Source of the DNA: Marsupella aquatica
Taxonomy: Eukaryota; Plantae; Marchantiophyta
DNA: 64,000 nt
Direction: 5' to 3'
Assembly: GCA_973895155.1 (NCBI GenBank)
Contig: OZ316897.1
Span: 17,404,058-17,468,057 of the forward strand
Numbering within the stretch: the stretch's first letter is position 1; each line of letters begins with the position of its first letter. The position numbers and the translations under genes were made by a program. This document shows, piece by piece, positions 6,901-29,432 of the stretch. Under the pieces are notes generated by a model that worked only from the letters and a program-made list of their open reading frames with translations, did not search any database and was not told where the DNA came from.

Positions 6901-7246
6901 GATCTTGATCATATCCTATGATGCCGATTCCAAATTTGAAGAGTATGTCTTCAAGTGTAAGTGGTTCAAAATTCACCTGGTTGGTGATAATCGCACGGTA
7001 CTTCTTGATGAGTGTGGGTTTACTCGACTGAAGACATCAGCAACTAGCTTTCAACCATCTCATTGGCAAACGTCTGAACCATTTACATTCCCAAGTCACC
7101 TTGAGCAGTGTTTCTATATTCCGTACCCACCAGACCTAGAGTGGTCAGTTGTTATACCGTATGTGCCACGGTCCCGTTCCATTATCTCGGAAAAACCTGA
7201 CGTTATTATTGTGTCAAATGGAGGCGAGGATGAGGACCAGGTTTGA
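3978..7246 (+). pseudogene. CACTA TnpD transposase pseudogene (Transposase_21/DUF4218/DUF4216-type regions)
   Basis: Motifs IHACVNDC, WFPIIPRL, WPVVVMNYNLPPW, HDYPG, LDPMHIEGNV, KTHDYH, FFDCQVHLLVHL, WMYWLERY. Intron 5167-5300 is phase-compatible. In-frame stops at 6308-6310 (TGA) and 6746-6748 (TAA). LASNG where intact TnpD has LxxDG. Confidence 0.9.
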
Positions 7247-8790: not shown

Positions 8791-11700
8791 TCACTGTACT
8801 ATAAAAATGGACAAACTGAGCATCACAAATTGCAAATAGAGCGAATGTTTCAGGGATTTGGCTAACTTACTTGGCCTCTAGAAATCGACAAAACTTCCCG
8901 CTCCCACAACTTCGTGTGGAGCTTTGGATTTGTTACATCAAAGCTCCTTGAGATCCACCTCTCCCCAACCTTGATGATTCACCTAAAGTTTGCTGCAGAA
9001 TTTGGGGCAATGGTAGCCATCCCAGATTAAAATTTGTTTATCAAACTCAACTGCACAAACTGCAAATGAATACCTTGCGGCCTTAACCCTTGACGCAATA
9101 CAAGTGACCAAGGAAGTTCATTCCTGATTGGTGCGTACCTCAGTCTCCTTTGTCCACTGATCCTCTGATCGTGACCCGGGTCCTCAAAGCTGAATCTTCC
9201 TCAAAGCTGAATCTTCCAACCTCCACTCTGCTCAACTAAGCCCGATGGATGATCACTGCAACTGCTTACAAATGTCTGCGACCAAACCAGGAAAAGCGTT
9301 ACTTACAGACCAACACCCTAGCCAGTGAAGGAGCTGCAAATGGAGTCCAAAAAGTGGTGGAAGATTAAGTATGAGAGTAGACCTAAGGCAATAGCAGAAG
9401 GCAAGTCAGAGCAGAATAAAATAAGACATAGGAAGCCGGGGAGGAATCAGAAGAGCGATGGCAAGCGCTTCAACCTAAGCGCAGAAATTAAGAGCTTAAG
9501 AAGTCCTAGAGACGGTTGCTAAAGGAACTCAAGAGCAATTGCAACATCCGAGGCAATGCCATTTGGCGATATATAGTGAATGCAATATCGTCAACCAAGA
9601 AATGCAGTTCACTTGAGGGACTGTCACTACATTCAGGACTACATCGTGTGGGTTTTGTTCAGTCTAATGCAGGGAGAGGGTTACCTTGTTGCACCAAACC
9701 GGAAGGTGATCGCTCCTTAGCCTTCTAGGGGGTATCCTTCGATGATATCTGAAAAGGCCCACAGGCATCAGCTAAAAGCATGTAAACTCTACATCCATCC
9801 TTCCATTGAAAAACTCTCTCAACATTGAAAACCAGATGGCTTACCGTGCTCAATTGATGTGTCCACTCCCAGAAGAGTCAACACGCAACACTGAAGCTTT
9901 CACTATCTCCTTCGATCACTGGGTTTCTCAAAAATGATCTGCAAGAAAAACATCTCCACAATGAAGCACTCAAGCTGGCAGCGTTTGCAAATCCAATGAA
10001 ATGTCACTCATGTCGATCGCATCAAGATCTTAAGGATAGTCACAATGACTTAGAACAATCCATTGAAATCCAGCCAAATGCATTGGCAGTCAAAGGCACG
10101 TAAATCCTACAAATCACAATGCAGTGGCGTGCAAATCCGCAAGTTGGCACAATTACAGCCAAATCCAGGAAACATTGAGGCAACACATAGAACATTGAAG
10201 ACATAATCGGGGAGATAACAATGCATGCCTCAAATGTGGAAGGTTCACAGAGCATTTGAGTGGGTGAGATTGAGACGACCTTGACAATCGCAATGTCGGG
10301 GAAGACCTTCCAAACTAAGGACCTTCAAAGCTAGCACTCAGCGATGCTGGGCAAGAGCAAGAACAGGCAAACGAGGGCCAACAATGTCGGATGCGGATCG
10401 ACAATGGTGGACAAGGCCAAAGCAGCAATGGCGGACGAGGAGCAGCAATGGCGGACAAGGAGCAGCGATGGCAGAGGATTGATGATGATGGACGAGCAAC
10501 GATGGCGGTCGAGCAATGATGGCGGCCGAGCAGCGATGGCGGCCGAGCAGCGATGGCGGACGAGCCAGGAGCAAGCAGAAGGCATCAGGGAGCGGGAGTG
10601 CGAGGCGAGAGCGAGCGCGAGGCGAGGTGAGACCGAGCGCAAAGGAAGAATGAGGAGCAGGGGTACGAGGGGGGGCTGACCCCAGGCGGTGACGGTCTCA
10701 TGACTAAACCCTAAACCTTAGGGTTCATAACGTAGGCGAGGCCATGGATCGCCGATTCAATGGCTTCGATTCGCTCTCCCTCTAATCCAACGGTTTTAGT
10801 CATCCCCGATGTGTTTTCTTAAATTCCCCGCCAAAACCCCCACCACTCCACACACCTGGTCCATCCCCATTGCCCCGGGATCGCCCCCAATCCTCCCTTC
10901 AAAACTTTTCTAGCTTAGCATAGCCAGTATTAACATTTTAATTTATGAAGGAGATATGGATACTGTAAGGATAATACACGTGTACCAATTATAATTTGAC
11001 ACGTGTACCAATAATATGATGCCGCGTGTCGCTACCTATTGATTTACCCTTCCGCAAAAGTAAGCAGGATGACATTTCAAGGGGTCTTACGAAATTACAA
11101 AGTGGTTTCGGTATATATGCGGTGGTTGCGGAATTGTGAGCAAATTATAAAAATTACCGCCGAAGGGATAAAAATGACCCTTGAACGATTCTCACGTCCT
11201 CCCCGTATTAGAAAGGAGTGGGGGCCCAGGGGTCAGGGCTAGGGTCGGGGCGGCTATTTTTGCGCCGACCTGCGCTCCAAAAACAACCGCGACCAGGGAG
11301 AAGCGGGGTTCAATGAGAGGTCGAAGGGTATGCGAGTGTGTAAGGGGCAAAAGGGTTAAAAAGGCCAGTTACAAACCTAAATTGCTGCCGATTCGAATGA
11401 GAAAACAATGAGTTACCGATGGGATTTGTTGCCAAATCACATCGACGCCATTTGCAACTCCAACACTGTAAAAGCTTCCACCACGTTGCCTTCACACCAC
11501 GTCAAGTGCCAATCCCAAACTCAAAACAATTACCTTGCCACGATCAAACTGTTGAGCCGTAGCACTACGCAATGTTTCCACTGAGTCGGACGTCACAAAG
11601 AGAAACCCAGTTCAGATGGAAATGAGCTCCATAGCTTGTGAAAAACCTAAACGCCTCCTTCACTCGTCATGTCGCATTTGGTAACAACTCGACAACAATC

Positions 11701-14700
11701 CTGCTACCAAAATGATCAGCTTGCTTCAACCTTCAACTTGAGCTATAATGTGTGATCCCTCCCGCACCGTATAGCTCACACTGTTGAAAAATGCAAACTC
11801 CACTAGTAGAAACCGGGGCAATTTAGACCATACCTTATAGGACTAAGCCCACTAAGTCCTTTTTCCATACTTGAAACGACTCGCACCCATTGCACCAGTT
11901 TTGTTGAAGACTACAAAAGACTATTAGTGTTTTATGGTTCACTAAAAGACTATGAGAAGTAACCTTGCTACTTTGTGAACGGTGAATAGTCTAGCACATC
12001 ATGGGTAATGTTCACTTATGTTGAGGAGGGGTAATTCTGTAAAGAGGGAGATAGCAAGGGGCATAACTCAATAAATGGCCTTATTTGTGACAAAAAAGGT
12101 TTTGGAGTGAGGTTCATGGAGGGTGGACTACGGAGGGATCGATTACTAACTCCATCAATAAAAGGCCAAGATGCACAAAGGTAGATTTGTACCGGTCTCA
12201 AGGGGGTGTGGGTTTAGGGTTAGGGGGTTGTCCAGGCAAAGAACACTCGATTGAAATAGTGACGCAATGGTTTAGGGTAAAGGAACATGTTTAGGGACCC
12301 TAACTTGTTTGCTGCCTTGGGAGGATCTTGAGAGCCTGAGCTTGCAAGCGGCATGCACTCTAAAAATGGCCCTTGGCATTGCAAAGATAGTCTGGCCACA
12401 GTCGAGTTGTGAAGACGTTTAGGGGGTTTATATGTCAAGGCTAGGGGGTGGCTGGGTTTTCACTAAAGGGGGTTTAGGGGGGTTTGATGTCAAGGGTCGG
12501 GGGTTGCATGTTAAGGGGATGGGGGTTTAGGAACCATTGGATCGTTGGCATCATGTCCATTGACATCATGTTCCCCATCATGTCCATTGACATCATATAT
12601 GTCGGGAAAGATAATTGACAAATTATTCATGAGGGTAGGCAATTTGGACAATGTTCAATTGTGTTCAGGAGGGGTAATTGCATAAATTAAGAGGGTGATG
12701 ACAAGGGGCATCACTCATTAAATGGCCTTATTTGTGACCAAAAGAGGTTTGGTTTAATGAAGTTCGATCACCACAGATATTTGCTAAGGCCAAAGTATTT
12801 GTTTAGCGACACTACACTAAGTTGTCACTCACAACACTTGAGTGAATGGAGGGGGTTTATGGAGGGTCAGGATAATCTTGCCGTTACCATGTCGGCAACA
12901 CCAGTGACTTTGGTAAGGGTATCCCAAGCTAGGGGCCTGTATCGCTTGCAGTACCGTTTGGACACCCGAGTCGCGCGACCGTTGGAAGGGAACAAGCCGG
13001 TTATGCAACTTTGCTTACACTTAGCAGGTTGTTGATGTGTTTAGGGATCCCGCCACATTCCCAACTTGCGGAGCAAGGTTTATTGTGTTCTCTTGGTGGG
13101 ATCGGGAGTTTAGGGATTGGAGCAAGGTTTTATCGTGTTCTCTCGATGGGATTGGGAGCTTAGGGATCGGAGCAAGGTTTTCCGTGTAATCTTGGTGGGA
13201 ACGTCTCTACAGTGAGGTTTAGTGTTCCCATTTTCTTGTGGTCGGCTCTGTGGAATCCGAGAAGAGGGATCGGGAGTTTAGGGATGCTGCAATGACCGGC
13301 TCTCGAAGGGTGAGGTGAGACAACCTATTCAACGCCCTTTTGCTGCACCCTTAAGCTGTTGAGCTGCCATTGAGCTGGTGAAGCTGCATGCGGGTTGCAT
13401 CTGTTCTACGGGCGCACTATCTGCCTGGTTTATGGATTGTGGACTTTGTGGGGAGCGACAATCGGTAACAACGTGAAGGCCATCAGAGGCTGGGCAAAGC
13501 AGTTTAGGGTGCTGTGGTCGAGGAGGAGCTCACCACAAATTGGGGAGAAGACGTGGGTGACGAGCTGGGGGCGGGGAGGAGCTGCAGTCAGGGAGGATAC
13601 AGACCGTCTACAGAACGACTGGCAGTCGGAGCGGCGCAGGAGCTTAGAGTGGGCCAACGCCAGCTGAATACAAGCCAGGAGTTGCATAAGGTGAGAGTCC
13701 AAGTTTTGTGTTGCTTTAGTGTTCGAGCAGCGTGCTGCCATTTCAGCCATAGTGCACCGCCTTTGAAGCTCCCATTGTCAGGGCTGGTAAGACATCACGG
13801 CTACATTGCTTTTCTTTGTTGTCCTCTGTCTTTTTGTGGGGACAACCTACTTGATTTGAGCTGCGCAAATCGTCATAAGTTAAGGCATGCGTCATGCCAT
13901 CTGGATAGTGTGCCACCGAACTGTGGGAGGATGAGCAACGCGTGGCTGTAAGCAGGTATTCTGTCAGCACAGGCGAGACTTCATTGTTAAAATCCTATTG
14001 CCTGCAATGTGTCTTGTAATGTGTTTTTCCTCATTCAATCAGGAGCTGAGAAGGGTATTGTTAGGCTTCAATTACTCTGTGTTTTTCTCCAGCTCCATGG
14101 TACAGTTTGTGCTTTGTCTGGCGCCCATGCTCCGTCGATCGTAGAGCTAGGTCAACCGAGCTTTGAAGAGGGAGGCTGTGGGAGCTCCTTACTGTGCTGC
14201 AGCTGCTCTTCAATCAACGGTGTAGAGATTGTAGCTACGATCAGTGTTTGCGGAGCTGCCAGCCGGGTGCTTCGATAGTAGAGAAGAGCAGCCACAGTGA
14301 TTCAGTCCTTCTCCTATGTGCAACCAAGGACCCCCTGTGCATCGTAAAGTGTGACCTCGGAGCTGAGCTGCGCACTGTCTCTATTACATGCCTTGTTGTT
14401 CTCTATTACATGCCTTGTTCTCCCGTCCACTATTTCCTGTGATTTTCTTTCTTCTAGAAGAGAATGGTGATTTCTTCTTCAATCAAACAAAACCCCACCC
14501 AACCACCACCCAAGAACGTGGGGTGCGCGCTTCTCAATCCTCCTCAAACTGGCCCCAAGTCTGCTGAAACCCCATATATTACCCACCGGCACCAAGGGTC
14601 CAGTCCCAACCCGTCTTCCGCTTGCCACCCTCCTCACTCTCTCGCGCATCTATCTCCCGATATTTCACGCACAGCCGAGCCCACCAAAAGCTCTCTCCCT

Positions 14701-16606
14701 ACAATCCCTCCTAAATCAACTTTCTCGTTTCCTGTTGCTGCTGATGTATGTTTGTTCTCCCCTATTTTTGTTTACTGATTGGTCTCTCCACACTTCCTGC
14801 TTGACATTACTGTTTTGCTCCTCCTGGATCCAAACATGCCTTGTGCCCCGTGCTCCAACCTGCATCCTTTTCTTTACTGAGGGGGGGACCACAGCCTCCA
14901 GCCATACCTTGTGGCAGGCCTGGTCAAGACGGTGGTCGGTAGCTCGTTTTTGCTTTTTTCTCTTTTGTTTCCCAAGCTTCTGGGCGAGGGCATTACCATT
15001 CTGGATTCTCCGCGAGGCGCCACTAGCTTTTTTTCTCGGTTGCCCGTGTGCCTGCCTTCTTAGTTTTGTTTTTTCCTCAAGTGACCGGGCCATCGCTGTA
15101 TGCAGATTTTTCTTGTTGTATTCATGTACAATATTTTATTGTTCTATCTAGGTTGTGGCAAGCCAACAAACTGTTGACAACCAACATGGAATAACAACTA
15201 TGCAGTGCAATGGCAGAGGACACTGTCCAATATAGGAATGACATGGTTATGTTTTCAATTCCCTGCTTGGATGAGGCGTGGTGTTGCTTGTAATCATGTA
15301 TTTCTTCACACTAGAAAAGCAGTCTGTCGGATGAGGTTGTCGGGATTGTTTGTGGGTCAGTCATCTTACGGACACCTAGCAACGTCAAATGAATGGTGGA
15401 AACGGGCCATGTTGTCATTTTGAAATTTGTCTTTCCTTTTGCCATGCTACCCAATCATTTTGTTAGTCCATGAGTCATAGATTCATAGATTCTATGTTTT
15501 GTGCTTTGTCTAGAATGCTATGGCGCCCATGCTACAATTTGTGGTTTTTGTCTAAGCACAAATCCTCTCTGTGCCTGGTCTCTGTGTACCGTCATTTGGA
15601 TTGATTGTGCAGACGTTTCCTCTTCTCCCAGTCCTTGTCATCCACCAGCCAAAGCACATTGGATTGTTTTCAAAGGAGGGCTGTGTAGTTCGGAGGGTTT
15701 GATCTATGCAGCGGATTTGAGCAGATTGGCGGTTGTTAGTTTCTTCTTGTAAAACCTGTCTGTCTTTTCTGCTTTTGGCCATGCTCCTTCACTTGTTGCT
15801 GCAAGCTCAATGTGCTTCAGCTATGGCAATATTCACTTACCCTGTCCCAACGGCACTGCCATGAGCTGTAGGACAGCCAACAGAAGCAGATTGTATCAAT
15901 TGCATGTAAGTCAGGGTATTTTATGTATTGCGGAACAACTGTCCAAGTATGCTGCAATGGTCCATCTTGCAGAGCTGAATGAGCCAATTTCATTTTCCCT
16001 GTGCACTTCTATTTCTCAGAGAATTCCCTGGTCATGCTCATTTCCCCCAGAGTTAGAAAACAAAGAAGAAGAGCTGACTAATTGTAATTCCAATCCATAT
16101 CCTGATCGGTCAAGGATTGTTCACTACATTGGCCTTGTCATTGGCCGAGGTCACCAAATTTTGCTTGGTTTCATTCCTGTGGAGCACTGCTGTGATGGAT
16201 TTGTCGTAGCATTCTGCAAACTCTCACGGTTTGCTTATGGCCATTATTTGCAATTTGCTGCTACTAATATGTCTTCTTCTAAGCAGCATACACCAGAAGT
16301 AAGCAATAGTGGAGGTTTAACTGCACATCAACACATCTAGTGAACTACCTCTCTGCTGCTCACTGGAGGGTGAGACTTTCACTCTTTCTGGATATTGTAG
16401 TTTGTAAGCAAGTTGATTAGGAGTGTTTCATGCTATGTTTACACTGTGACCCCTAGCTGGAACCAATGGAATGACACAGTGAGTGGGAACTGATAATTTA
16501 AGGTTGGTTGCTGTTGGTGAGGCAAGTACAGCTCCTGCTCACCTTGCTGATCGAAGGTGCTTATCAGAGGACGTGAACACACGACATCTCCACAAAAGCA
16601 ACACTT

Positions 16607-17056
16607 ATGGTGAGGACCCGCAACGCTGAACATGTGCGGCTTGCACGCAAGGCAGAGATGTTGCGCCTTGAGTATGTCAGACTTGGGATCCTTCCAGCCC
16701 AGTCTGCATGGTACTTTGAGTACCCAGTTGTTGCCAGGAACAACTACAGTCGGCCTGTACCTGCTTCTCCACCCTTCCCAACATCCTTGGTATTTCTGTC
16801 TCTTGTACATGACCCGCCACAAATTAGGGCCCAAGGGTGTGTGCACAGTTGCCAATATGACTGTCCTGCCTGTAGGGCTTCTGGCCTAGAGTTGGATGAC
16901 CGTTCTCTTGGATGTCGGTTTTTTCACAGAGCACAATGTATCATCTGGAACCACTCGCCATCCTGCAGTGTGCCTGGCAATGTCACTTGTCCTGCCCTCC
17001 CAGACCCCACCACCGGTCACTTTGGTGTCTACACATGTTTGGATCACACGCTCTAG
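16607..17056 (+). CDS. Cys/His-rich hypothetical protein, possible degenerate zinc finger
   Basis: 149-aa ORF MVRTRN...CVHSCQYDCPACRASG...GCRFFHRAQC...VYTCLDH; co-oriented with the cargo cassette. Confidence 0.4.
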   Translation: MVRTRNAEHVRLARKAEMLRLEYVRLGILPAQSAWYFEYPVVARNNYSRPVPASPPFPTSLVFLSLVHDPPQIRAQGCVHSCQYDCPACRASGLELDDRSLGCRFFHRAQCIIWNHSPSCSVPGNVTCPALPDPTTGHFGVYTCLDHTL

Positions 17057-17725
17057 AGGACCACTTGTCACACCACATGCACAAACCAGAGACCATTGAC
17101 CTATAACTTAACACTTTGACTTGAACAGAGAGGATATTTACTTAAGATTTTGAATTATGACCAATTTTGGGTCCAGGGTTTAGGGTCAACAGTACATAAC
17201 TTATCCTATTATGGCTGCACTAAGTACAATATCCTAATTTAAGAGGCTAGCAAGCTCACTTAAAAGTCTCCTTTCAAAGACTGGAATTAATGGGCCATGT
17301 GATAACCTGGAAAAAGTGATTTATGCCTAACTTATTTGTCTCATTCACTATCATAGCCTATTTAGGATGTATAAATTACAACCCTGATCACACTGCTTGA
17401 TACCAATCCTGTTCAAAAAATGCCTGTTTTACATGTCACGACTGTTATATGTGATTCAAATGCATTAAATCTTGTTGCAGATCTCCTTTGGTGAATCATA
17501 GCCACAAAATTGAGGTGTAGGTGGAGCTATTGTACGAGGGGATCAGTTTTTAGTGTGGGCTCAACAAACCAAAAAGTATGTCTACTCTGCACATGTGTGT
17601 GAACATTTCATTGCAGTAGCAATTGCCACTCTAGTCTATATGCTACACTGTACTTTTTGTACACTGCACTAAATTGTATTGTCTGTGCACTCTGCTAAAT
17701 TGTACTATCTGTCTCATGCGTAGGC

Positions 17726-18406
17726 ATGGCACGCCCTAAAATCCGAGCCAAGAAGCGGGGGACAGAGGTGAGCAACACAGGTGTAGTTGGGCCAGATGGT
17801 AGTAACTTCTCCGCAAGTCAGATTTTCCAGAAGGCAGCTCATTGTTGTGCCATTTGTGACGATGGTGGTGACTTAGCCATATGTGAGGGCCCTTGCATGA
17901 GGCATTTCCACCTCAACCCGGAGTCTGACCTTGCTGCAGAAAACAACTGTCCAGGGGTGGGCCTCCCGTCAGCACACCAAGGAGGCTGGATGTGCACTGA
18001 TTGTTTGGAGAAGCAGGCTAAGTGTGCACAGTGTGGGAAGTTGGGGTCTTATGAGGGCTCTGTTGATGCTCCACCACTTGTTAGGAAATGCCCTGACAGA
18101 TATTGTGTGAGGTTCTTTTGTTTTTCATGTTTGCCCGATCTTGCCACAGCTTGCCCACTTCATAAGTGCAAGGCATGTGGTCAGCACGATGAAGATTTCT
18201 GGGTGGACATAGTCCACTGTGTTAGGTGTCCCACCATGTGGCACTTTCATTGTTTGAAGGAGCGTCAAGCAGAAGGCTATGCTTGTGACAGACACATCTA
18301 TGATCACTCTGCACATGGTGTTGATCGATGGATCTTCTATTGTCATCGCCATGCCATAGATCCTACTTTGCACACTCCCATGAGAGATCACATTTCTTGG
18401 CTTTGA
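17726..18406 (+). CDS. Stand-alone EDM2/NSD-type composite PHD-finger protein (TE cargo)
   Basis: CAICDDGGDLAICEGPCMRHFH...C..C...CAQCGKLGS...CPLHKCKAC...HCVRCPTMWHFHCL...IFYCHRHAIDPTLHTPMRDHISW follows the recalled EDM2 PHD region (CAICDNGG..CCEG.C.RSFH...CPLHKC..C...CRRCP..YH..CL...IYC..HEID..L.TP.RDH). Basic N-terminus RPKIRAKKR. Acceptor AG at 17722-17723. Confidence 0.85.
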   Translation: MARPKIRAKKRGTEVSNTGVVGPDGSNFSASQIFQKAAHCCAICDDGGDLAICEGPCMRHFHLNPESDLAAENNCPGVGLPSAHQGGWMCTDCLEKQAKCAQCGKLGSYEGSVDAPPLVRKCPDRYCVRFFCFSCLPDLATACPLHKCKACGQHDEDFWVDIVHCVRCPTMWHFHCLKERQAEGYACDRHIYDHSAHGVDRWIFYCHRHAIDPTLHTPMRDHISWL

Positions 18407-19006
18407 ACCTGAATAATGTACATGCATAGTGCACCTGATGTGGATACCTTGGAGATTGCAGACATTCCAATTTTGAGAAGAAGGACCTCTGTAGGAGAGG
18501 ATGCTTAGGCAACAAGTACCCTAAGTTCATTACTTGTTCCTGGGTACATGCCTTCAAAATCTCCCCTTAAGCCTTCTAGGAACTTTTTTAACTCTGCAAT
18601 CATTTTGATCACGACTTACATGACACTGCTTAAATTAAATCAGGACTTCTCATTATGAGCATATAAGTTACAAGGCTATTTAATTTGCGAGAATTCCCTT
18701 AAAGTGTACCAACATTTTGTATTCTCATTGAATGTCTGCCCCCATACGAAACATCTGTATGTGGCATCACAAAACAATTGCACTTGTCACCTTCAATATT
18801 GTGAAGGCACATATTCAAACTATGAAGTGCATGCTTGCAGGTGTCTAGTACGTTTGTCCCAATATTTCTCCCGTTTGGAATCGGAGCAGAGACTCACCAG
18901 ACGACTGGACTGGACCAAGTTATAAACGCAGCATTTTAAGGGCCCTCCGATTATCAGGTGAACGCATTATCTTCCGGTCTGCAGTGATTAGGTGGCCCGT
19001 GTGTAC

Positions 19007-19855
19007 ATGGCCTCTAGGAAACGTACAAATGTTGACCACCCGCCTTTGTTGGCTGGAATCAAAGCCATTTTGATTCCTGGCCACTATGGGTTCACCCAAG
19101 TGAGTTGGCCAATCGTACAAAAACGATTCTCAGAGTTCCATGGGACTGAAGTCAAGGACATCACTCCACAGACTACACATGTTGTTGCGGGGACATGGCT
19201 GGATGTGATGAACAAGTGGTCATGGTCCTTCATTGATTCTGCGATTACCAACCAAGGTCTAAAAGTAGTTGAAGTCTCTTGGCTGACCGATTCTGTTAAA
19301 CATAGGTGTGTACAGAGTACTGAGCAATATGAGTTGTGGGAGAGTGAGGAGGCCACTGCAGAGGCTTTGGCTGAAAAGGAAGCCTATGAAGCAGCGGCAG
19401 AGAAACCCAACTTTGCTTCTGTCCAATATGGACCTGTTGTCAACATAGGACACCATCCTATGCGTGCAGATGCTATATTGAATGAGCATGGCAAGGAGAG
19501 AAATACCATTATGAAGGGGTTCAGTGTGGTATTTGCAGAAGAAGGAATTGGGGAGACTAAGTGCAGACTGTACAAGTCTATAGTTGTTGAGCTAGGTGGG
19601 ACAGTGGAGGAGAGTCTAACAGAAACCTCCACTCATGTTGTAGGTCTGTCATACATGAAAATATGCAGAAAATTCTTTAAGACAACAGTGCGTGATTTTG
19701 TCATGAACAACAATCTTTGGGTGCTTTCCCCTGATTGGCTTCTGGAATCAGCAGCTAGAGGGAAGCGACAGAATGCTTGGGACTTTGATATTTTTGAGGC
19801 CTGGCCCTCCAAGATTCAGCGGAGATGTATGCTTAGCAAAGGTGGGAGAGAGTGA
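19007..19855 (+). CDS. Tandem BRCT-domain protein (TE cargo)
   Basis: Two BRCT repeats: ...HGTEVKDITPQTTHVVA...VVEVSWLTDSVK...EQYEL and ...LGGTVEESLTETSTHVVG...VLSPDWLLESAARGKRQN. First ATG 19007 (ORF track from 18992). Confidence 0.85.
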   Translation: MASRKRTNVDHPPLLAGIKAILIPGHYGFTQVSWPIVQKRFSEFHGTEVKDITPQTTHVVAGTWLDVMNKWSWSFIDSAITNQGLKVVEVSWLTDSVKHRCVQSTEQYELWESEEATAEALAEKEAYEAAAEKPNFASVQYGPVVNIGHHPMRADAILNEHGKERNTIMKGFSVVFAEEGIGETKCRLYKSIVVELGGTVEESLTETSTHVVGLSYMKICRKFFKTTVRDFVMNNNLWVLSPDWLLESAARGKRQNAWDFDIFEAWPSKIQRRCMLSKGGRE

Positions 19856-20031
19856 GGAGTAGGAGTCCCTCATATTTTTGTATAAATCACAATTTTGTAA
19901 TAAATGTGATCCTTGAACTAACTCATCTTGTCATGGTTGGTCGCAGTTGAAGTGATTGTTGTTTCCTGCTGCGTGGGGTGTGACTGTGAATCTACTTGCT
20001 GGGCTCTGTTTGGCTGAAGACTTTGGTGGGT

Positions 20032-20565
20032 ATGCTGCCTCTTCCAGACCGTCAGGCCCTGTGTAGGGTCCTCCTACGGGTTGCATCGTGCATGGCTACT
20101 GCTTGGGCTTACTTGTGTGGATTGGTAACCAGACAGAGTGTAGCTCCATCCGAGATAATGCCTGCAGACCTTGGATGTGTTGTGAATGCTGTGGTGAATG
20201 AGGATGCACAGTCGGAAGAGGACATTTACTTTTCAGCAGATGAGTTAGACAAGCACGATGCTGTAGGTGGTTCCTTGTTGCCTGATTTGGCAGATGATAT
20301 AGTTCTTACACATGTCTGGCCGAGGGTTCTTGTGGTGTCTGGCGCACAAGATATCTGCAAATATAGACTAATTAGTACCCAGTGGAGGGACTTGGTAGCA
20401 ACATGTGCACCATGGAGGGCACTGCTGCCACTGCTTGTAGGCACGGATCGAAGACCACCATGGCATGAGCAGGGTTTAGACCTTGATGACTTAATGTACA
20501 TGCCTGAGTACCTCAGGGCTGAGTGGCATCGACAACAAGATTGGTATCCGTATTTGATGTGGTAG
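20032..20565 (+). CDS. F-box motif protein (TE cargo)
   Basis: SLLPDLADDIVLTHVWPRV...ICKYRLISTQWRDLV fits the F-box consensus LP.LPDD+...+..R+...+R.VC+.WR.L+. First ATG 20032. Confidence 0.7.
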   Translation: MLPLPDRQALCRVLLRVASCMATAWAYLCGLVTRQSVAPSEIMPADLGCVVNAVVNEDAQSEEDIYFSADELDKHDAVGGSLLPDLADDIVLTHVWPRVLVVSGAQDICKYRLISTQWRDLVATCAPWRALLPLLVGTDRRPPWHEQGLDLDDLMYMPEYLRAEWHRQQDWYPYLMW

Positions 20566-20891
20566 TAAGATGAGGACATCTCACACCGGTCTCGCACCTG
20601 GCACCTGTGTCTATGACTATACATGATTGGACTCTGATATGGTCATGGATGTACGTGCAGAGGCAGTACATGTGAGGACAGCGGAGGAGTTGACATCCTC
20701 AAACATTTAGGAATTTTGTCTCATTCACTTGAGAATAGGTACATGACTCAGGCACCTATATTTTTTGTTTTTTTGTTTTTTTGGAACGTTACGTATTTTG
20801 GCAAGTACAGTCGGGGGTGAAATCCTTAACAGGAAGTGTATTTTTCACTTGCATAATAAAATGACAGGGTGCTGAGTGCGTGTGTATAGTG

Positions 20892-23800
20892 ATGGCTCCA
20901 AGGTTGCCTCTTCACAACCCATTTAGGATTAGGCATCATGATTCTAAATTGTGGATGCGTGAACAAGCCCGGGCCGCCCAAGGTAGGAGTAGGAGGATGA
21001 GATGCCCATGCACACAGTGCCAAGGATTCAAGTCATTGAGTTTGAACACTGTGCACCTTCACCTGCTGCGGCATGAAAGGCACCCTCGGTGGAGGGTTTG
21101 GAATGTACCAGCAGAAGAAGACTCCTCTGATGAAGAGTGGAGAGCTGACTTTGTGGATTCTAATACAGCTAGGCGTAGAGACTACGTAGAGCAGGACATA
21201 GACTGTGCAGAGGATGGTCCTGGGGTCCAACATGAGAACGTGGATGACCAAGATGGAGATGCAGAGGCAGTCACTGAGGACGGTGGGATGGATGTCCCAA
21301 GAATGGTTCAAGAGATTTTTGAAGACCTTGATGCTTTTTACGACACAGTGGAATCAGAAGAGGACAATGAACCGCAGCCACACATTGGCGACGGCCAAGC
21401 TGAACCTGACTTTGACATTGGGGAAGGTGCAGCAGAGAGGGAGTGGGTGTTTGGGGGCCCAAAACACATCAAAGAAGCTTGCATTCCTATCTACGAGGGG
21501 TCGAACTGCTCCAAGCTGGGTTTTGTCGTGTTGTTGTTGAACATCTGTGGCAATCACAATGTTCCCAATATATTTGTGACAGAGTTGTTGACCTTCCTGC
21601 GCCGAAATGTGTTACCAGATGGTAATTCAATTCCAAAAAATATGTACGAGGCTAGGAAATTGATGTCTAACCTTGGGCTGAACTATGTGTCTATTGACGC
21701 ATGCCCTGATGGGTGTGTTCTCTTTCGCAAAGAGCATGCAGATAAATTGACATGCCCTCATTGTGGTAAGCACAGGTACAAGAATGTAGGGAAATGTACA
21801 CACCCTGCCAAGGTTCTTCGTCATTTTCCTCTCATTCCTAGACTACAACGTCTGTTTAGATGCCCTGCCATTTCCAAGCTGATGACATGGACTCCTGATA
21901 ACAAGAGCAGTGATGGCCTGCAGCGTCACATTGGAGATTCCAACCATTGGAAATTTGTTGATGAGAGGTGGCCACAGTTTGCTGCAGAGAAGCGGAACTT
22001 TCGATTTGGTCTATCACTGGATGGAGTAAACCCATTTGGAGACAAAAACAACCGTTATTCATGTTGGCCGGTTACGCTGCTAAATTACAACCTTCCCCCA
22101 TGGATGACTACAAAGAGGTTTTTTGTCATGATGGTGCTGTTAATCCCTGGACCAGCTTCTGTGACCGAGCAATTCATAGATATCATGTTGGCTCCAGCAG
22201 TGGAAGAGTGGAAGACTTTGTGGATAGAAGGGGTGTTAACCCATGATGTTCTGAAGGGGCTTCTTCGACCCAGCCCCTTTAGACTGCATGCAATTTGTTT
22301 GCTGGATATAGCAGATTACCCAGGCTATGGCATCATATCTGGACGAGTGACAAAGGGCTATGTGGGGTGCACACCATGTGGGAAAAATGTGACAAGTGAG
22401 TGGTCGCATGCCCTGCACAGTATGAAATTTCAGGGGCATAGAAGGTATCTGCCTGTTGATCATCCTTACAGGCACACACGGTCTCAAATTGCACACTTCA
22501 ACAACAAAACAGAGCTTCGTGGCCCACCACAGAGGGTCACCAGAGAGCAAGTCCTGAGGTGGGCAGCCAGGAAGGCTGATTGGGACAAGAGAAGTGCCAC
22601 TGATCGAGAACCTGAGGATCCAGTGGTGAAACACGGTGTGAAAAGACAGACCTTGATGGACTTGGAGTTGGAGTACTGGAGGGTAATGTACTTAGCCTCC
22701 AGCCCCTGTATGATTGCAATTTTAGATTGGAGCAATGGTGGATTGATGTTGGTTACAATCCTCCTATGTGGTTAATTAGTGTTTCTGTTGTTGAATTCTT
22801 TGCTTTGTGGAGTGCAGGAATTCGAGCCCAGCAAACACAATGTGGACGTCATGCACATTGAGAAAAATATTTGTGAGAGCTTGCTGAAGTTCTTGTCGGG
22901 TGAGAAAGATACAGGAGCAGTTCGAGCTGATATGCAACAGAAGGGGATTCGCCCTCACCTTTGGTTGAAGCCCCATGCAAGCAATCCCAATGTACTTCTC
23001 AAGTTCCAAGCTCCCTATGTGTGCACACAGGATGAATGGAAGACATTCTTGTATAGATTGAGCTGTCTGAAAGTGCCCTCTGGCTATGCTGGTGCCTTCA
23101 AGAAGCATATTACAAAGAATAAACTTGGCAGTATGAAAACACATGACTACCATGTGTTGATGCAGCACATTCTGCCCCTATGCCTCAGAGGTCTCATGCA
23201 GAAACCAGTCCATAATGTCATTCTTCGACTGTGCAATGTATTTCGCCGTATATGTGTGAAAGTGTGGGATCCCCAAGGATTGGAGCAGTTGAAGCAGGAT
23301 GCTGCTTATGTCCTCTGTGACTTGGAGATATACTTCCCCCCTGCTTTCTTTGATGTTATGACTCATCTCCTAATCCATGTGGTAGAAGAGCTAGGGCAGT
23401 ATGGGCCAGTCAGTACCAGATGGATGTACCCTATGGAGCGATACATGAAGTTGTTGAAAGGTCATGTGAGAACATACTACAGGCCAGAGGCTTCCATGGC
23501 ATTGGGGTACATTAAGGATGAGACGTTGGGATTCCTAACAGAGTACATGGCTGGGTCTGGTGAAGCTATGACAAGAGTTTGGAAATCTGGTGAAGATGAT
23601 GGAGTGAGTGGCGAGGTTGTTGAAGGTGTGGGACGTGCTGTTCAGCTGCCTGTTGCGATTCGAGACAAGGCTCATTCATATGTGCTGGCAAACACAGAGC
23701 CTATGCAACCATGGTGGAGGTGAGTGATTGAATTGACTTGCCTTTGTTGTGATGCTTCTTGTCTGTTCCAAGGGTGATCTTAGGTTGTCATGTGTTGTTT

Positions 23801-24592
23801 AGACCTAACTATGCCTGTACCTCATATTGCAGGGAATATGATATGCAAAAAGCTGCACACTCTGGGCAGCAGGATCCCTTCCCACAGTTCGAGCAGTGGA
23901 TTCGGGTGACAATTCGAGAGCATAGTAGACATCACCCAGATATGGAGAAGGATTTGTATCTTCTATCTGTGCCACCACGATTGTCTATTCTGACCTACAA
24001 ACGGATGAGAGCTTATGGAAATCATTATCGAGTGAGGGATGAGCAGGGTGACCATTGTGTATCATATGATTGTGGTTTGATTTCTGTGTTTGAGCAGAGA
24101 ACCTCTGAAGAACAGAGGGGGTGGATGAAGATGGGTTACGTGGGGGAGTTGACCGACATTTGGGTGTTGAATTATGGTAACACAAGTGTCCCAGTGATAT
24201 TGATGAAGGGATCATGGGTGAAATCAGAGTGGCAGAGACCAAGGGCCACCATGAAGCGTGATCATGATGGGTTCTTGTTGGCCAATTTTAGGTCCAGAGT
24301 ACCAGAATGGTCTGAGCCTTTTGTTTTCCCTAGCCAAGTTGAACAGGCTTTCTTTGTAGATGTGGAGGAGTCACATGGCTGGAGGGTGGTATGCCATAGC
24401 CAAGCACGGAACAGGCGGATGGATGGAAGTAAAGTAGAGTTCAGTTTGGATGACCATGCTGCATTCGAGCATCCTAGTCATGAGACTGTACTTCCAACTC
24501 GGGCAGGGACTGACTACATCCCCTTAACATTGAGAGAGACATATGATGAACCTGGGCAAATGGAATATGATGAGGTTGATGATTTGCAATAG
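20892..24592 (+). CDS. CACTA TnpD transposase, apparently intact; exons 20892-22682, 22818-23719, 23833-24592 (~1150 aa)
   Basis: CPCxxC N-domain, IDACPDGC, LSLDGVNPF, NYNLPPW, ADYPGYG, DVMHIEKN, KTHDYH, FFDVMTHLLIH, WMYPMERY, EPFVFPSQVEQAFFV. Both GT-AG introns join in frame. Confidence 0.95.
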
Positions 24593-24769
24593 GCAACAGC
24601 TGGCGATTGGCAAGTATGAGGTTGAGGATGACTACCTGCACAGAGTCACAGAACGGGAATTGCTGCCTGGAATGATGTTTAGGATAGTTGGATATGCATG
24701 AAATTGATTGATACTTTGAATTTAGTGTGCTGATTCTCCCTGTTTGGTTGTGGGTGCTGTGCAGAAGCT

Positions 24770-27700
24770 ATGGGGGAAGAGGGTGATGACATGGAGACAG
24801 ACATGGGGCTTGGAGAGTGGGGTGAAGAGGAAAGATTGGATATGGATGGAGACCCAGATGCAGGGGGCTCACAGAAAAATGCACCTGTGCAGGATGCACA
24901 GGGCCCTCATCAAGTCCCAGGTAGGTGGGCAGCTAGAGAGAAATCACATAATCCATACCCTAGAAGGAGCCAGAGTTATTGGCAAGGGACGCCTGATAAT
25001 TATGATGATGACTATGATGGAGCAGAAGATGGATGGGATGAATATGAACACCCAGAGCGTGGTAGAGACGGGTACAGAGGGCAATGGACAGGTGAGGAGG
25101 ATGATTGGACAAGTAAGTGCCTTGTGCTAGTGATTTTGTGATGGTAGTAGAGATTTAGCTCAATATGGACTTATCTGATGTGTAGCTAGGGCAAAGAGTT
25201 TATCTTACAGGTCCATGAGTGTGGCATGTACCTGTTGGTATGCAGACTCTGATTGGGACAATCACGAAAACAACAAAGGCCATCCACGTTCAGATAGGCG
25301 GCAATCATTCACAGGCGGGAGAAACGGCCCTAATTCATCAAGACAAAGCAATAGGACAGGTGGTCCAGAACCATCTATGCGCCAAGGGAGAGGTAACTTG
25401 GTCATTGCAGAATTGCTCTGAAGTCCAGTGTATATTTGGCAGCAGGATTTATGATTCATACTTACCTAATGTAAGTGACTGTAAATGGATCCTGTAAATG
25501 TGCAGGGACTCCAGGGAGGTTTGGACAATGCAATCCAGGCCGTGGGGGGAGATCAGGCCGTGGAGGGACCCCAGGCCGTGGGGGGACACCAGGCCGTGGA
25601 GGGACACCTAGTAGCGCTTCAGGGAGTACCAAGGCAGGAGACAGTAACAAATTTGGTAAAGTAGAAGTGAATTCCGAAGGTTGGATAACTCCCACATGTG
25701 ATGGTAAGAACCGTTGGCATTCTGACCTAAGAGGAGAAGTATTGCGTTGGTTAGATTTGAGCATTACAGAGTTTAGGAGTCAGAACAAAGCTGATTGGGC
25801 TGCTATCTGCAAGGACATTCTTGAACGGTGGGACTATGTTGGTAATGATGGTAAGGGCCCAGTTGAAGATTGCATATCAGATTATGCAATGAGGATTTTG
25901 AAACAAGAGAGGCATAGGTTGAAAAGGATGTGGATAGACAATGGTTCTAACAGGAGAATGCCACCACCCCCATCATTGGAACTGGATCAATGGACACGGT
26001 TAATCAAAGGGTTCATGTCGGAGGCTGGACAGAGCAAGAGTGAACTGATGTCAAATGCTCGAGGCAAAGTGAAACACCTTTCACAGGCTGGGAGAGGAAG
26101 TTATGCTCCAGTGAAAGAACAATTGGTAAGGCAGTGACATGCCTAATAGTAAGCCTCAAACTTATCATCTTGCTACCATTATTACATTTTCATTGACAAT
26201 CAACACTTGGTTTCATTCATATGTATGTTGATGTGGACTGCAGAAGAAATTGACAGGTGAAGAACCATCAGCACAAGAAGTGAGAGAGGAGTTCATGAAA
26301 CAAAGGAGTGAGGTGACAAGTGTGACTTCCAAACAGGTGATTATGTTGTAATTCTATATGTTCTGTGACTATTTGGCCTTGAGCATCAGAAAGAATTGTA
26401 GTAGGAAGTAAGCAACCAGTTCTTGGGGACAATTATCTGAGATATGTAAACTGTGTTATGACAGGGAACTGTTACAACTCTCACAAAGATGTCTGAACGG
26501 TTGAAGTCATTAGAGTGTGGACTCCCTCGAGTGGAAAGTAAATTGGCTGATCGTTTGGATATTGTGGAGGCATCTGTAGCGAACCTTCTTGCATCAGTGG
26601 AATCTAATTTCAAGCTTGTGATTGAAAAATTGGGTGGTTCCCAACCAAACAATGAGGGCAACATTGTACAAAGTGTGCCCTTGTTAACAAAAAAGGGAAT
26701 TGGCAAATCTGACACAGGTATGCAATGAGGATTTTGAAACAAGAGAGGCCCATTGTTCATTGTGTCCTATGTTCAAATGTTAGAAGTAAGTTTTCATGAA
26801 TTGAGTGAATGGTTTGAATGCAGGAAGAGTGGAGGCAGAGAACCTGGACCCTGTAATCGGTAAGCAGAATGGCAAAAAGGTTGCTGAGACAGGTAACCTG
26901 CTATGATCCAGTACATTACATTTGAAAAGTGCATGGAGTTTTGTGAAGCTTAAGCCGGTTGGAGGTAATCTTTTCTGTAAGAATTGGTTGGATAAACTGG
27001 GAATTGAAGTGACATCATGATTGATGTATCAGGTGATTCAAAGAGCAATGAAAAAGATGTGCCCAGTGCCTCAGTGACCATAGCCAAGGAGGTATCAGGT
27101 AAGCTGATGCTTTAAATTCCTCTCCTACCATTGTTGAGAAACAATTCAGTGGTTAATAGATTGAACCTGAATCTTGTGGTCTGTTTATTGATCAGCAGAA
27201 GCAGACATGGAGGATATGGCAATGGCAAAGAAGGGGAAGAAGGCTGTTCATAATGGTAAGGAGATAGTGACAACTTTGTGGATGGTGACATGTACATGGC
27301 GCACATGTGATGAGTGATTCACTTATGTTGGACAATGCATTGAATTGTAGTTGATGCAGAGTTGACAGACTCTCAACCAAGTGGGAGCAGGGTGAAGCGA
27401 CGTCGAAACTTGGGAGCAACATTGGATGCAAGTAAGATTGTAGATGCTTCAATTGAAGCAAGTACAATGTTAGCAGATACTGAGATGATGTCGCAGGGAA
27501 ATCCTGCTACACAATCGGAAGTGTCAAATATGGATGCAGATTCTTTGAAGAAGAGTGTAGCCAATTCTCGATCACCAGCACAAAACACTCGTGCCAAAGT
27601 CATGACTCGCAACCAAGGTATGAATAATGTCATGTATAAGCCACCCAGGAAAGCCAAGAAAAACAGCCAGGGTAAGGTGGAGGTGATAGCCACAGCAGAG

Positions 27701-27955
27701 CCAGTCCATAATCTTCTATCATGGGAGAATGACTCGCAGGTATGTGTGGGTACAGGCATTTTGCGACCGGATCATGCTAAATTCCATGGCAAAGTGGTCC
27801 CGGATGACCATGTAGTAGTGTTGTTGACTACAGTGATTGTATCTGATTGTAATTTGCCATTTCCGAATAGAGACGATGATCCACCTCAAGAAATAATTGC
27901 AGATGCAGTAGGATCTCTTGTGCTCTGGCCATCAGAGTGTGTTAGTCTGCAGTGA
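24770..27955 (+). CDS. TnpA-like multi-exon CACTA accessory gene
   Basis: Series of short exons with GT/AG borders (24770-25112, 25246-25392, ~25506-26125 and others). Core ILERWDY...ILKQERHRLKRMW..PPPP...QWTRLI. C-terminal En/Spm-type domain (VGTG...FHGKVVPDDHVVV...LPFP...DAVGSLVLWP). Exact exon chain not fully resolved. Confidence 0.7.
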
Positions 27956-29081
27956 CTGAATACAAGTGTAGATAGAATCATGTGAATTGTGTTACATTTT
28001 GACATTGCCTTGGAAAAATCCAAGAAATATCTGTACCAATTTTTCCATTTGGTAAAGAGGATGAAGGAGCCGTTGTGTGTGACATTGATATTTCTGAATT
28101 CTGTATGTATGAAACAAGTGATTGATGTCAAACTATGGCTCTATGGTGATTGTCTATGATACTTGAATCTGTTTTGTATCAATTCAGTATTAGTGTGTAT
28201 GGTATAGACGAATGCTTTGTGACCTTCTTTGTAGTCTATGATGTTTGAATCTGTGAATTCATATTAGTGTACATGGTATAGAAGATGGTTTCTGAAAATT
28301 TGTGTGAGGTTCTAATGTTAACATGGTGAATGGTGACCTTATAGAGTGAGTTCATTCCAAGTACACAATAAAACATGAATGAAATGTGTTATTTGTGCAC
28401 AAGAGTGAGTTCATTCCAAGTAGTATAGTGGGGTCTTCATCACTCATTTCCAGTTGACATGAAAGACTTGTACATACCCCACAAAGTGTCTACTTTAGTC
28501 GTTTTATAAACCCCCACAAAGTGTCTACTTTAGTCATTTTATAAACCCACAAAGTATATTTAAAGACTACCCTCCATAACCTTTTGAGTTGTTCCCAACG
28601 ACTCACCATCGCAGCCCATAAAAGACTGAAAAAGACTCACCAAAGCTACCCACACAAAGACTAAAATAGACTGAAAATCCAGTCTATTAAACGACTTATA
28701 AACCAGTTCTATAAAGGACTCAGTTGATTATAGTAACAAAACATACGACTCGCAGTCCTATAAAGGACTAGAGTCCTTCCCAGTCGTTTCCAAGTCCTAT
28801 ACGGTATTGAATAGTCGTTTAATGGGGTCTAAATACCCCCCGGTTTCTACTAGTGCTCTAGTTTCTCCCCCAAAAAGCCGTCAAACACGAATAAAACTTG
28901 AACGACGCAAAATTCAATTCCTCCGCACCACGGATATCGATCAGCAAGTTCTAACCACCGTCAAAAAGCGCTCTCACTAACCTATCCGCTCAGCCACACA
29001 CATTCAAGTTTTATGCAACAAAACTCTGAATGTACCATTGAGTACAATGAATGCTGGAAAACCTCGTCACCTCCCAGACAT

Positions 29082-29093
29082 GCTCTGATACCA
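29082..29093 (-). promoter_or_regulatory. Primer binding site (tRNA-iMet) of LTR copy A
   Basis: Minus strand TGGTATCAGAGC, 2 nt from the LTR end. Confidence 0.9.
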
Positions 29094-29095
29094 AT

Positions 29096-29432
29096 TGTTG
29101 AGCAGAGACAACATTTGCAACTGCAAGCCCATGAACCATCCAATGCACAAGAGTCGACACAAAGAGATACATGGTTCACCTCCACATGAGACTACGTCCA
29201 CAGGAACACACAAGAGCTTTACTGCACTCTAGGCGGACCAGCCATACCAAGCATCCACAACACAAGCTCTCCCTATCTCTCAACTAGCTCCGTAACAATG
29301 AGCCTAAGTTCCATTAGGGGTCTGGCATCAGCCTCAGCAATATGCACAATAGCACTCTCGCTAACATTAGCTAAGTCCTAACTCGAGTTAGACTAACTTT
29401 GGTTAGCTCATGAGCCACAAGACTAGAGAACA
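29096..29432 (-). mobile_element. LTR (copy A), with 8-bp deletion near its outer end
   Basis: TGTTGAGC...AACA termini; homologous to 38401-38744 and 55228-55571. Confidence 0.85.

Follow-up and report, generated by a model that had tools for sequence, protein, structure and literature searches.

How are the closely packed genes of a multi-gene DNA transposon expressed? The question is raised by a stretch of 64,000 nucleotides on contig OZ316897.1 of Marsupella aquatica (hereafter the window), where positions 17481..24770 hold a row of open reading frames (ORFs) on one strand. A sequence-only reading of these positions had noticed a splice acceptor in front of every ORF, and had proposed that the whole row is served by one promoter and alternative splicing, as in the maize element Spm. 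We find that this stretch is the gene-bearing core of a 17-kb CACTA element. The anatomy of that element, six genes of which four are conserved accessory genes, is solid. The sites named in the sequence-only reading are present where it placed them, but they are mostly at chance level. Judged from sequence, the core with its four accessory genes, a TnpD and a TnpA-like gene may well use its acceptors locally and be served by several promoters, not one, an explanation that we give slightly less than an even chance.

A complete CACTA element

The core is part of a complete CACTA (En/Spm-type) DNA transposon of 17,055 bp, located at 11801..28855 on the plus strand. It begins with an 18-nt terminal inverted repeat, CACTAGTAGAAACCGGGG (11801..11818), which is matched perfectly on the minus strand at the other end (28838..28855), and it therefore has the inverted CACTA...TAGTG ends of the superfamily. 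The 3-bp target duplication of CACTA elements is also present, as CTC at 11798-11800 and 28856-28858. In one sequencing run (X4) a genomic contig joins 11800 to 28864 with eight other letters in between, a form that resembles an empty site, and the flank in this contig is itself a high-copy repeat. The host site of the element is another very high-copy repeat (28759-29355 and 11301-11800), and in run X1 the summed depth of the right flank is 10-20 times that of the element. The sequencing runs used in this work are genomic contigs in which introns are retained, e.g. an X1 contig spans 21528-23171 without a gap.

The 5′ subterminal zone (12212..13509, plus strand) contains nine copies of the telomere-like GTTTAGGG. 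A second motif, AAAGACT, is found near both ends of the element, twice at the 5′ end (11916 and 11945) and five times at the 3′ end (28462-28656). With GTTTAGGG and AAAGACT, the element has the repeated subterminal motifs that characterize CACTA elements. A scan of the whole element against Rfam gave no matches.

The element family is high-copy in the genomic runs of three organisms. Between 12370 and 15783 the summed contig depth is several-fold below that of the rest of the element in all the runs compared, and 13807-15497 is absent from some genomic contigs. This indicates that the 5′ leader region varies among copies; in most family members it seems to be different from, or shorter than, that of the copy at 11801-28855.

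Transposase genes

The element has six genes, all on the plus strand, with four accessory ORFs preceding the TnpD and TnpA-like genes. The gap between the first ORF and the second (PHD) ORF is 669 nt; those that follow are 600, 176, 326 and 177 nt, in line with the ~180-600 bp of the sequence-only reading.

TnpD is a transposase of 1150 amino acids (aa) in three exons (20892-22682, 22818-23719 and 23833-24592, plus strand), recognized by its Pfam matches and by continuity of the frame. It has the Tnp2-type domain expected of a CACTA element (Transposase_21, PF02992, E = 4.3e-60, 203 bits), together with DUF4218 (2e-27), a Transposase-associated domain (1.7e-4) and a DUF4216 match that is below the cut-off (3.7e-6, 27.8 bits against 30.6). 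The TnpA-like gene (24770..27955, plus strand) encodes 751 aa in nine exons, with the frame kept open across eight GT..AG introns. Exons 1-5 are at 24770-25112, 25246-25392, 25506-26125, 26244-26336 and 26465-26717, and exons 6-9 at 26824-26892, 27033-27098, 27196-27255 and 27351-27955. Its one domain match, to Transposase_24, is sub-threshold (E = 0.026, 15.1 bits against a cut-off of 28.7), and the name TnpA is given from its position, as in Spm, and its exon structure only.

Exon borders in both genes were placed by frame continuity; intron 1 of TnpD was set by hand, and its GT and AG were verified. The ten introns obtained in this way are 95-140 nt long, with a GC content of 0.39 and a T content of 0.35. 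Variation among copies was also recorded. Among the indels listed, all four in TnpD or TnpA-like exons are multiples of three (21243, 21266, 27046 and 26843), which speaks for constraint on these two genes. The same is true of none of the nine other indels in a first comparison of genomic runs and of 2 of the 11 others in a second, both of these being 3 nt long and inside an intron. These counts cover the listed indels, beyond which there are a further 40 and 8 entries.

Four accessory genes upstream of TnpD

Each of the four accessory ORFs is matched by stand-alone homologues of about its own length (28-82% identity), and we therefore consider all of them to be real genes. The first (16607..17056, plus strand) encodes a 149-aa Cys/His protein with the motif C-x-H-S-C...C-P-x-C-R. 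It has 11 library matches at E ≤ 0.001, four of them at ≤ 1e-30. In an alignment with eight homologues (28-56% identical) residues C78, H80, C86, C89 and R90 are invariant and the protein starts with MVRTR or a close variant. A Pfam scan assigned it to no family, and a fold search with its structure model (predicted local distance difference test, pLDDT, 66.5) gave no match at E ≤ 0.001. Upstream of this gene there is a 176-aa frame (15810-16340, plus strand) with no Pfam match, near the end of which lies a donor-like GAA|GTAAGC at 16299 (top 0.5% of GTs).

The second ORF (17726..18406, plus strand) encodes a 226-aa triple-PHD protein, a module resembling those of NSD and EDM2. With the NSD-type PHD models of Pfam it narrowly misses every cut-off, scoring 25.8 and 24.4 where 27 is required and 17.2 where 23.9 is. 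Two homologues were scanned, and both pass at least one of these models (27.7 for P0004, 29 and 27.8 for P0006). The five homologues known to us are 217-245 aa long and 38-82% identical. Each of the five begins with a MAR motif, or has it close to the start, and each has DHISW at its end or close to it. A profile of the six family members matches the PHD region of NSD2 (9.4e-11 over 159 positions) and that of NSD3 too.

A 1295-aa protein encoded on metagenome contig L002 has a PHD region to which residues 40-225 of the 226-aa protein can be aligned (30% identity, E = 1e-19). In the longer protein an RFD domain is followed by three PHD models, a layout that we take to be that of plant EDM2. A metagenome scan with the PHD alignment found nine loci, all 26-46% identical. 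Three of these were examined (L001, L002 and L004) and resemble host-type PHD genes; none of the nine was shown to be the transposon. The corresponding scan of viral contigs found nothing, and that of prokaryote genomes found a single chance-level match in a bacterial bin.

The third ORF (19007..19855, plus strand) encodes a 282-aa protein with two BRCT stretches (PF00533, 6.1e-14, 52.5 bits against a cut-off of 21.3). It has one homologue, P0001, of 294 aa, which is 61% identical, shares the start region and scores 56.4 bits with PF00533. A sequence search of the BRCT ORF against solved structures gave no matches.

The fourth ORF (20032..20565, plus strand) encodes a 177-aa protein that has three homologues (51-55% identity) and that we call F-box-like because of sub-threshold Pfam scores. 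It reaches 13 bits with the F-box models (PF00646 and PF12937), for which the cut-off is 20.5. Two further leads are a place in an F-box cluster of the Atlas (score 0.91) and an LPxD..W..V motif in the family, seen by eye. The structure model, with a pLDDT of 40.6, is too poor for use. Thus, of the names used in the sequence-only reading, PHD, BRCT and TnpD are confirmed; F-box is sub-threshold and TnpA is a matter of position and exon structure.

Proposed acceptors compared with chance

The sites on which the single-promoter proposal was built can all be read from the sequence. The last base of TTGCAG is at 17480, the first of GTATGT at 17576. YAG trinucleotides end at 17723 (TAG) and at 18840, 18984, 19946, 20867 and 24764 (all CAG), and the start codons are at 17726, 19007, 20032, 20892 and 24770.

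A YAG shortly before each start codon is thus present as proposed, but its closeness is not beyond chance. The nearest upstream YAG is 2 nt from the ATG for PHD, 15 nt for BRCT, 85 nt for the F-box-like ORF, 2 nt for TnpD and 5 nt for TnpA. When these distances are compared with those at the 2327 other ATGs of the window, the p-values are 0.08, 0.38, 0.91, 0.08 and 0.17 (Fisher combined 0.11). For BRCT and TnpD there are also YAGs that are closer to the ATG than those originally chosen.

We scored the sites with a splice weight matrix derived from the ten inferred, frame-keeping introns of the element's own TnpD and TnpA-like genes, a matrix that is noisy (leave-one-out scores range from −0.4 to 9.9). 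Ranked among 888 AGs, six of the seven named acceptors are in the top 1.8-12.5%; the exception is 17723, at 41%. Equally good sites occur about once per 300 nt.

A different picture is given by the AG-free tracts. Those before 17480, 17723 and 19946 are 113, 87 and 79 nt long, ranks 2, 6 and 9 of the 1234 AGs in the element. The longest AG-free tracts that end within 250 nt upstream of the starts are, from PHD to TnpA, 113, 100, 79, 84 and 37 nt, i.e. at least 79 nt before four of the five starts. Compared with the rest of the window these have p-values of 0.021, 0.029, 0.11, 0.089 and 0.67 (Fisher combined about 0.006). We regard this as a post-hoc hint, and a pyrimidine-rich promoter or terminator sequence would give the same pattern. 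The result fails to separate the models because core-promoter or 3′-end sequence would mimic it.

The 95-nt candidate exon and the stretches from acceptor to ATG contain no ATG. This absence is largely by construction, since ATG-free runs of 7-173 nt before the starts compare with a mean ATG spacing of 49 nt. Comparison of the gaps with each other showed no similarity beyond short shared motifs.

Candidate leader exon and introns

The common first exon of the sequence-only reading is a 95-nt candidate non-coding exon at 17481..17575 on the plus strand (TTGCAG|...|GTATGT), which has no ATG inside. Its acceptor at 17480 scores 5.5 (top 3.6%) and its donor at 17576 scores 5.1 (top 4.2%). This exon cannot be common to all the genes, because the conserved 149-aa ORF (16607-17056) is upstream of it. 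Not all genes are downstream of it, then, and a common exon would have to be further upstream, which is possible. Beyond the subterminal repeats, the sequence is richer in GC and CpG from 12801 to 13800; this zone, with strong donors at 13691 and 13787, resembles the first exon of Spm.

Between the candidate exon and the PHD ORF, a candidate leader intron of 148 nt (17576..17723, plus strand) ends 2 nt before the ATG. It is proposed from its size and its composition, as its GC content (0.39) and T content (0.38) resemble those of the ten inferred introns. In some copies 17586-17668 is replaced by 40 other letters and both splice sites are intact. A replacement inside 17576-17723 is consistent with an intron, without proving one.

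A second candidate, of 151 nt (24614..24764, plus strand, CAA|GTATGA...TGCAG|), lies between the TnpD stop and the TnpA-like ATG. Its donor at 24614 is the best in this gap (score 3.6), and its acceptor at 24764 scores 4.9, with an AG-free tract of 37 nt. At 148 and 151 nt, the two candidates have roughly the size, and the composition, of the inferred introns. We also observed that a 10-mer with a donor-like CAA|GTA, TTGGCAAGTA, occurs at 20798-20807, in the gap before TnpD, and at 24607-24616, in the gap before TnpA (E = 0.04). The copies are 63 and 151 nt upstream of the named acceptors; this pair is possibly a repeated donor context, or chance.

Candidate promoter and poly(A) signals

The motif TATA[AT]A[AT] occurs only twice on the plus strand of the 17-kb element, both times in gaps upstream of ORFs: as TATAAAT at 17370..17376, 356 nt before the PHD ATG, and as TATAAAT at 19881, 151 nt before the F-box-like ATG. 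The two TATA boxes share the context TGTATAAAT. A 15-nt motif, TTTGTCTCATTCACT, has exactly two copies in the 64-kb window, both on the plus strand (pairwise BLAST E = 1.7e-4), with no wider similarity around them. Copy 1 (17335..17349) is 35 nt upstream of the TATAAAT at 17370, and copy 2 (20715..20729) precedes TATATTTT (20758) by 43 nt and the start codon of TnpD by 177 nt.

AATAAA occurs six times on the plus strand of the element. Two of these copies belong to the 5′ subterminal zone, and a third falls within the coding part of TnpD. The copy at 19899 is 44 nt after the BRCT stop and lies together with the TATAAAT of 19881 in the 176-nt gap between BRCT and the F-box-like ORF (19881..19904, plus strand). 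That at 20855 is 290 nt after the F-box-like stop, and that at 28367..28372 (plus strand), 412 nt after the TnpA-like stop, is likely to be the 3′-end signal of the last unit. Taken together, the TATA boxes, TTTGTCTCATTCACT and AATAAA suggest putative promoters inside the cassette, one ahead of PHD, one ahead of the F-box-like ORF and one ahead of TnpD.

The gap between TnpD and TnpA (24593-24769) is different: at the motif level it has no TATA[AT]A[AT], no AATAAA and none of the listed AATAAA variants. TnpD therefore lies 5′ of the TnpA exons and on their strand, and neither a promoter nor a poly(A) signal can be recognized by motif between them, as in an Spm unit; this gap fits predicted splicing of the Spm type.

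How the core may be expressed

The plan that we favour, while still holding it to be a little less probable than an even chance, is a hybrid: it predicts several promoters, short leader introns, possibly a leader shared by PHD and BRCT, and a coupling of TnpD to TnpA as in Spm. A promoter region around 17335-17400 (TTTGTCTCATTCACT plus TATAAAT), or one further upstream, would produce transcripts headed by a short leader that is non-coding. In the PHD mRNA the 148-nt intron at 17576-17723 would be removed; in the BRCT mRNA the leader would be spliced to 18840 or 18984 instead, and the AATAAA at 19899 would mark the approximate end of both messages. A separate start (TATAAAT at 19881) and a separate end (AATAAA at 20855) are predicted for the F-box-like ORF. 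A further transcript would start behind copy 2 of TTTGTCTCATTCACT (20715) and would continue through the TnpA-like exons, with TnpD and TnpA separated by alternative splicing of the Spm type via the acceptor at 24764. The accessory proteins would act on host chromatin and on protein turnover for the benefit of the element, by histone-mark reading, phosphopeptide binding and SCF-type targeting.

Several points count against this plan. All of its start, splice and poly(A) sites are inferred from short motifs, and the counts are low: two TATA boxes and six AATAAA. The AT-rich stretch around the TATAAAT at 19881 could equally be the 3′-end region of BRCT. The acceptor at 17723 has a poor matrix score (−1.5), the donor at 24614 ranks no higher than the top 9.4% of GTs, and the AG-free-tract statistic was chosen post hoc, after the data had been seen. 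A start near 17400 would place four upstream ATGs (17420, 17433, 17449 and 17460) in the PHD leader; as all four are before 17480, they are a better fit to 17480 as an acceptor fed from further upstream. For the F-box-like ORF, the cut-off of 20.5 bits is reached by none of the four family members (the best scores are 19.3 and 17.7 bits), and some family copies have a frame-breaking deletion of 43 nt (20196-20238), which means that this ORF is not kept in all of them.

The rival readings differ in how many promoters they require. The original proposal, for which we see a distinctly small chance, has one promoter at or near the 5′ end, a single pre-mRNA and a common leader that is spliced to the acceptor before each ORF, yielding five or six proteins much as in a complex retrovirus. 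It draws on the common strand of all the ORFs, on gaps of 176-669 nt, on acceptor-like sites with long AG-free tracts in the right places, and on a candidate leader exon and acceptor-to-start stretches that are free of ATGs. The GC- and CpG-richer zone at 12801-13800 with donors 13691 and 13787, similar to the first exon of Spm, is a further point in its favour. Spm and ATENSPM3/7 are precedents, and the gap between TnpD and TnpA, without TATA or AATAAA and with a donor-like 24614 and a 151-nt intron, has the layout of maize Spm. What speaks against it is that the closeness of the YAGs is chance-level (p = 0.11), that comparable acceptors occur about every 300 nt, and that the conserved 149-aa ORF is upstream of the exon at 17481-17575. 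It must also explain the TATA boxes, the repeated TTTGTCTCATTCACT and the AATAAA inside the cassette, and it needs introns of 1.3-7.2 kb in an element whose own are 95-140 nt. Moreover, some Arabidopsis CACTA families use separate tandem TnpD and TnpA genes (PMC13547354). The opposite extreme, six separate genes with a promoter and a poly(A) site each, TnpD and TnpA included, and with the named YAGs as unused chance sites, would account for the YAG statistics and the internal TATA, TTTGTCTCATTCACT and AATAAA signals, and the multi-gene transposons of Arabidopsis are mostly of this kind (PMC13547354). We judge it a serious contender, though on balance unlikely: gaps of 176 and 177 nt leave scant room for a 3′ end plus a promoter, that between TnpD and TnpA lacks both TATA and AATAAA, four of the five starts are preceded by AG-free tracts (79-113 nt) of a length unusual in the window, and there are upstream ATGs in every gap up to the proposed acceptors, which unspliced leaders would include.

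Two further readings concern the nature of the accessory ORFs. That the 149-aa, PHD, BRCT and F-box-like ORFs are inert captured pieces of the host, with no role and no regulated expression, is scarcely credible to us. The capture of pieces of host genes by CACTA elements is on record (a title cited in PMC2613891), the PHD module resembles a host-type protein with RFD and PHD, and the F-box-like ORF is broken by a deletion in some copies; but all four ORFs are complete, and they have homologues of similar length (28-82% identity) in which starts, stops and zinc-binding residues are largely kept, unlike decaying fragments. At the other end of the scale, the family might be a chromatin-toolkit lineage that expresses all six genes from one spliced, retrovirus-like pre-mRNA, its EDM2-like reader suppressing the internal poly(A) sites at 19899 and 20855. 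The target of this reader would be the methylated body of the element itself, and the reader would so enable the distal TnpD and TnpA messages, as one part of a toolkit of EDM2-like histone reader, BRCT protein, F-box adaptor and zinc protein. This idea by analogy is a long shot; the analogy is to EDM2 itself, which together with IBM2 suppresses proximal poly(A) sites inside heterochromatic transposons, for the benefit of the genes that contain these (PMC10241880).

A polycistron resolved by spliced-leader trans-splicing was also considered and rejected. The Tnp2, DUF4218 and DUF4216 domains and the neighbouring genes look plant-type, and such trans-splicing is not known from plants.

Neighbouring sequences and a second CACTA element

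We take the window as a whole to be plant-type, judging from its transposase domains and the neighbouring genes; neighbouring frames in the window match ferredoxin-thioredoxin reductase and an alpha/beta hydrolase. A second, unrelated CACTA-type TnpD is located at about 3978-7246 on the plus strand (Transposase_21, 2.8e-38, and DUF4218). It is 24-36% identical to the TnpD of the main element. Directly upstream, in the same frame, an open frame at 3096-3827 has a SET-domain match (24.9 bits against a cut-off of 22.4); a sequence search of this frame against solved structures gave no matches. The 5′ side of the second element (1500-1920) is rich in GGGTTTAGGG-type repeats, and in both elements the plant telomere heptamer, (G)GTTTAGGG, is the building block of the subterminal repeats. 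With a SET frame in one element and PHD and the other accessory genes in the other, both CACTA families carry chromatin-type modules 5′ of TnpD, which may hint at a recurrent use of such modules by the CACTA elements of this genome.

Comparison with known systems

En/Spm, Tam1 and ATENSPM3/7 share with this element the CACTA ends, the 3-bp duplication and the subterminal repeats. These systems also resemble it in their gene order, since a Tnp2-type TnpD precedes a TnpA-like gene of many exons that is read in the same direction. Promoter and poly(A) motifs are absent from the space between these genes, and an acceptor stands immediately ahead of the TnpA start. In maize Spm and Antirrhinum Tam1 two transcripts are made from one unit, and in Spm the tnpD message consists of the large ORF plus the tnpA exons (PMC2613891). 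In contrast to En/Spm, the element described here has promoter-like and poly(A)-like motifs inside its cassette, and its splicing is predicted only. It is also longer, at 17 kb against the 8.3 kb of Spm (PMC2613891). Both modes of expression are found in Arabidopsis, where EN/SPM3 and 7 have one alternatively spliced gene, while in EN/SPM2, 5, 6 and 9 TnpD and TnpA are genes of their own, arranged head to tail (PMC13547354). The latter group resembles our element in placing tandem same-strand genes in one CACTA element (PMC13547354), but it has two genes where we find six, including a TnpD and a TnpA-like gene that are 177 nt apart without TATA or AATAAA.

Beyond the CACTA superfamily, two systems are of interest for the accessory genes. 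VANDAL21, a Mutator-like element with VANA, VANB and VANC, is also a multi-gene DNA transposon with accessory proteins that are thought to handle host chromatin. VANC has an anti-silencing role. VANDAL21 belongs to another superfamily and its proteins, among which VANB and VANC are the accessory ones (PMC13547354), are unrelated; a set of PHD, BRCT and F-box-like genes is not described there. As for plant EDM2 and EDM2-like proteins and animal NSD, the 226-aa ORF aligns over its entire PHD module with the 1295-aa plant-type protein of contig L002, and the family profile matches the PHD regions of NSD2 and NSD3. Unlike EDM2, it consists of the PHD module only, without RFD or the C-terminal part, and it is encoded by a transposon. 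Full-text word searches of the literature consulted, in which the EDM2 and accessory-gene papers listed were judged by titles and abstracts, brought up no account of PHD, BRCT or EDM2-like genes in a CACTA element.

If the genes do share one pre-mRNA, their alternative splicing would exceed in complexity that of any plant transposon known; if they have separate promoters, the element would be a compact mobile cassette of six genes. Two ORFs make up the canonical CACTA element of full length (PMC4158355). Here there are four extra conserved genes upstream of TnpD. Accessory factors of this kind have been discussed as a means for transposons to choose niches and to counter silencing (PMC13547354). 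Since the textbook CACTA element has two genes, a high-copy family that keeps four more would be a clear case of lineage-specific accessory factors in a plant DNA transposon, and it is in this set of accessory genes, rather than in splicing, that the element departs from the systems known so far.

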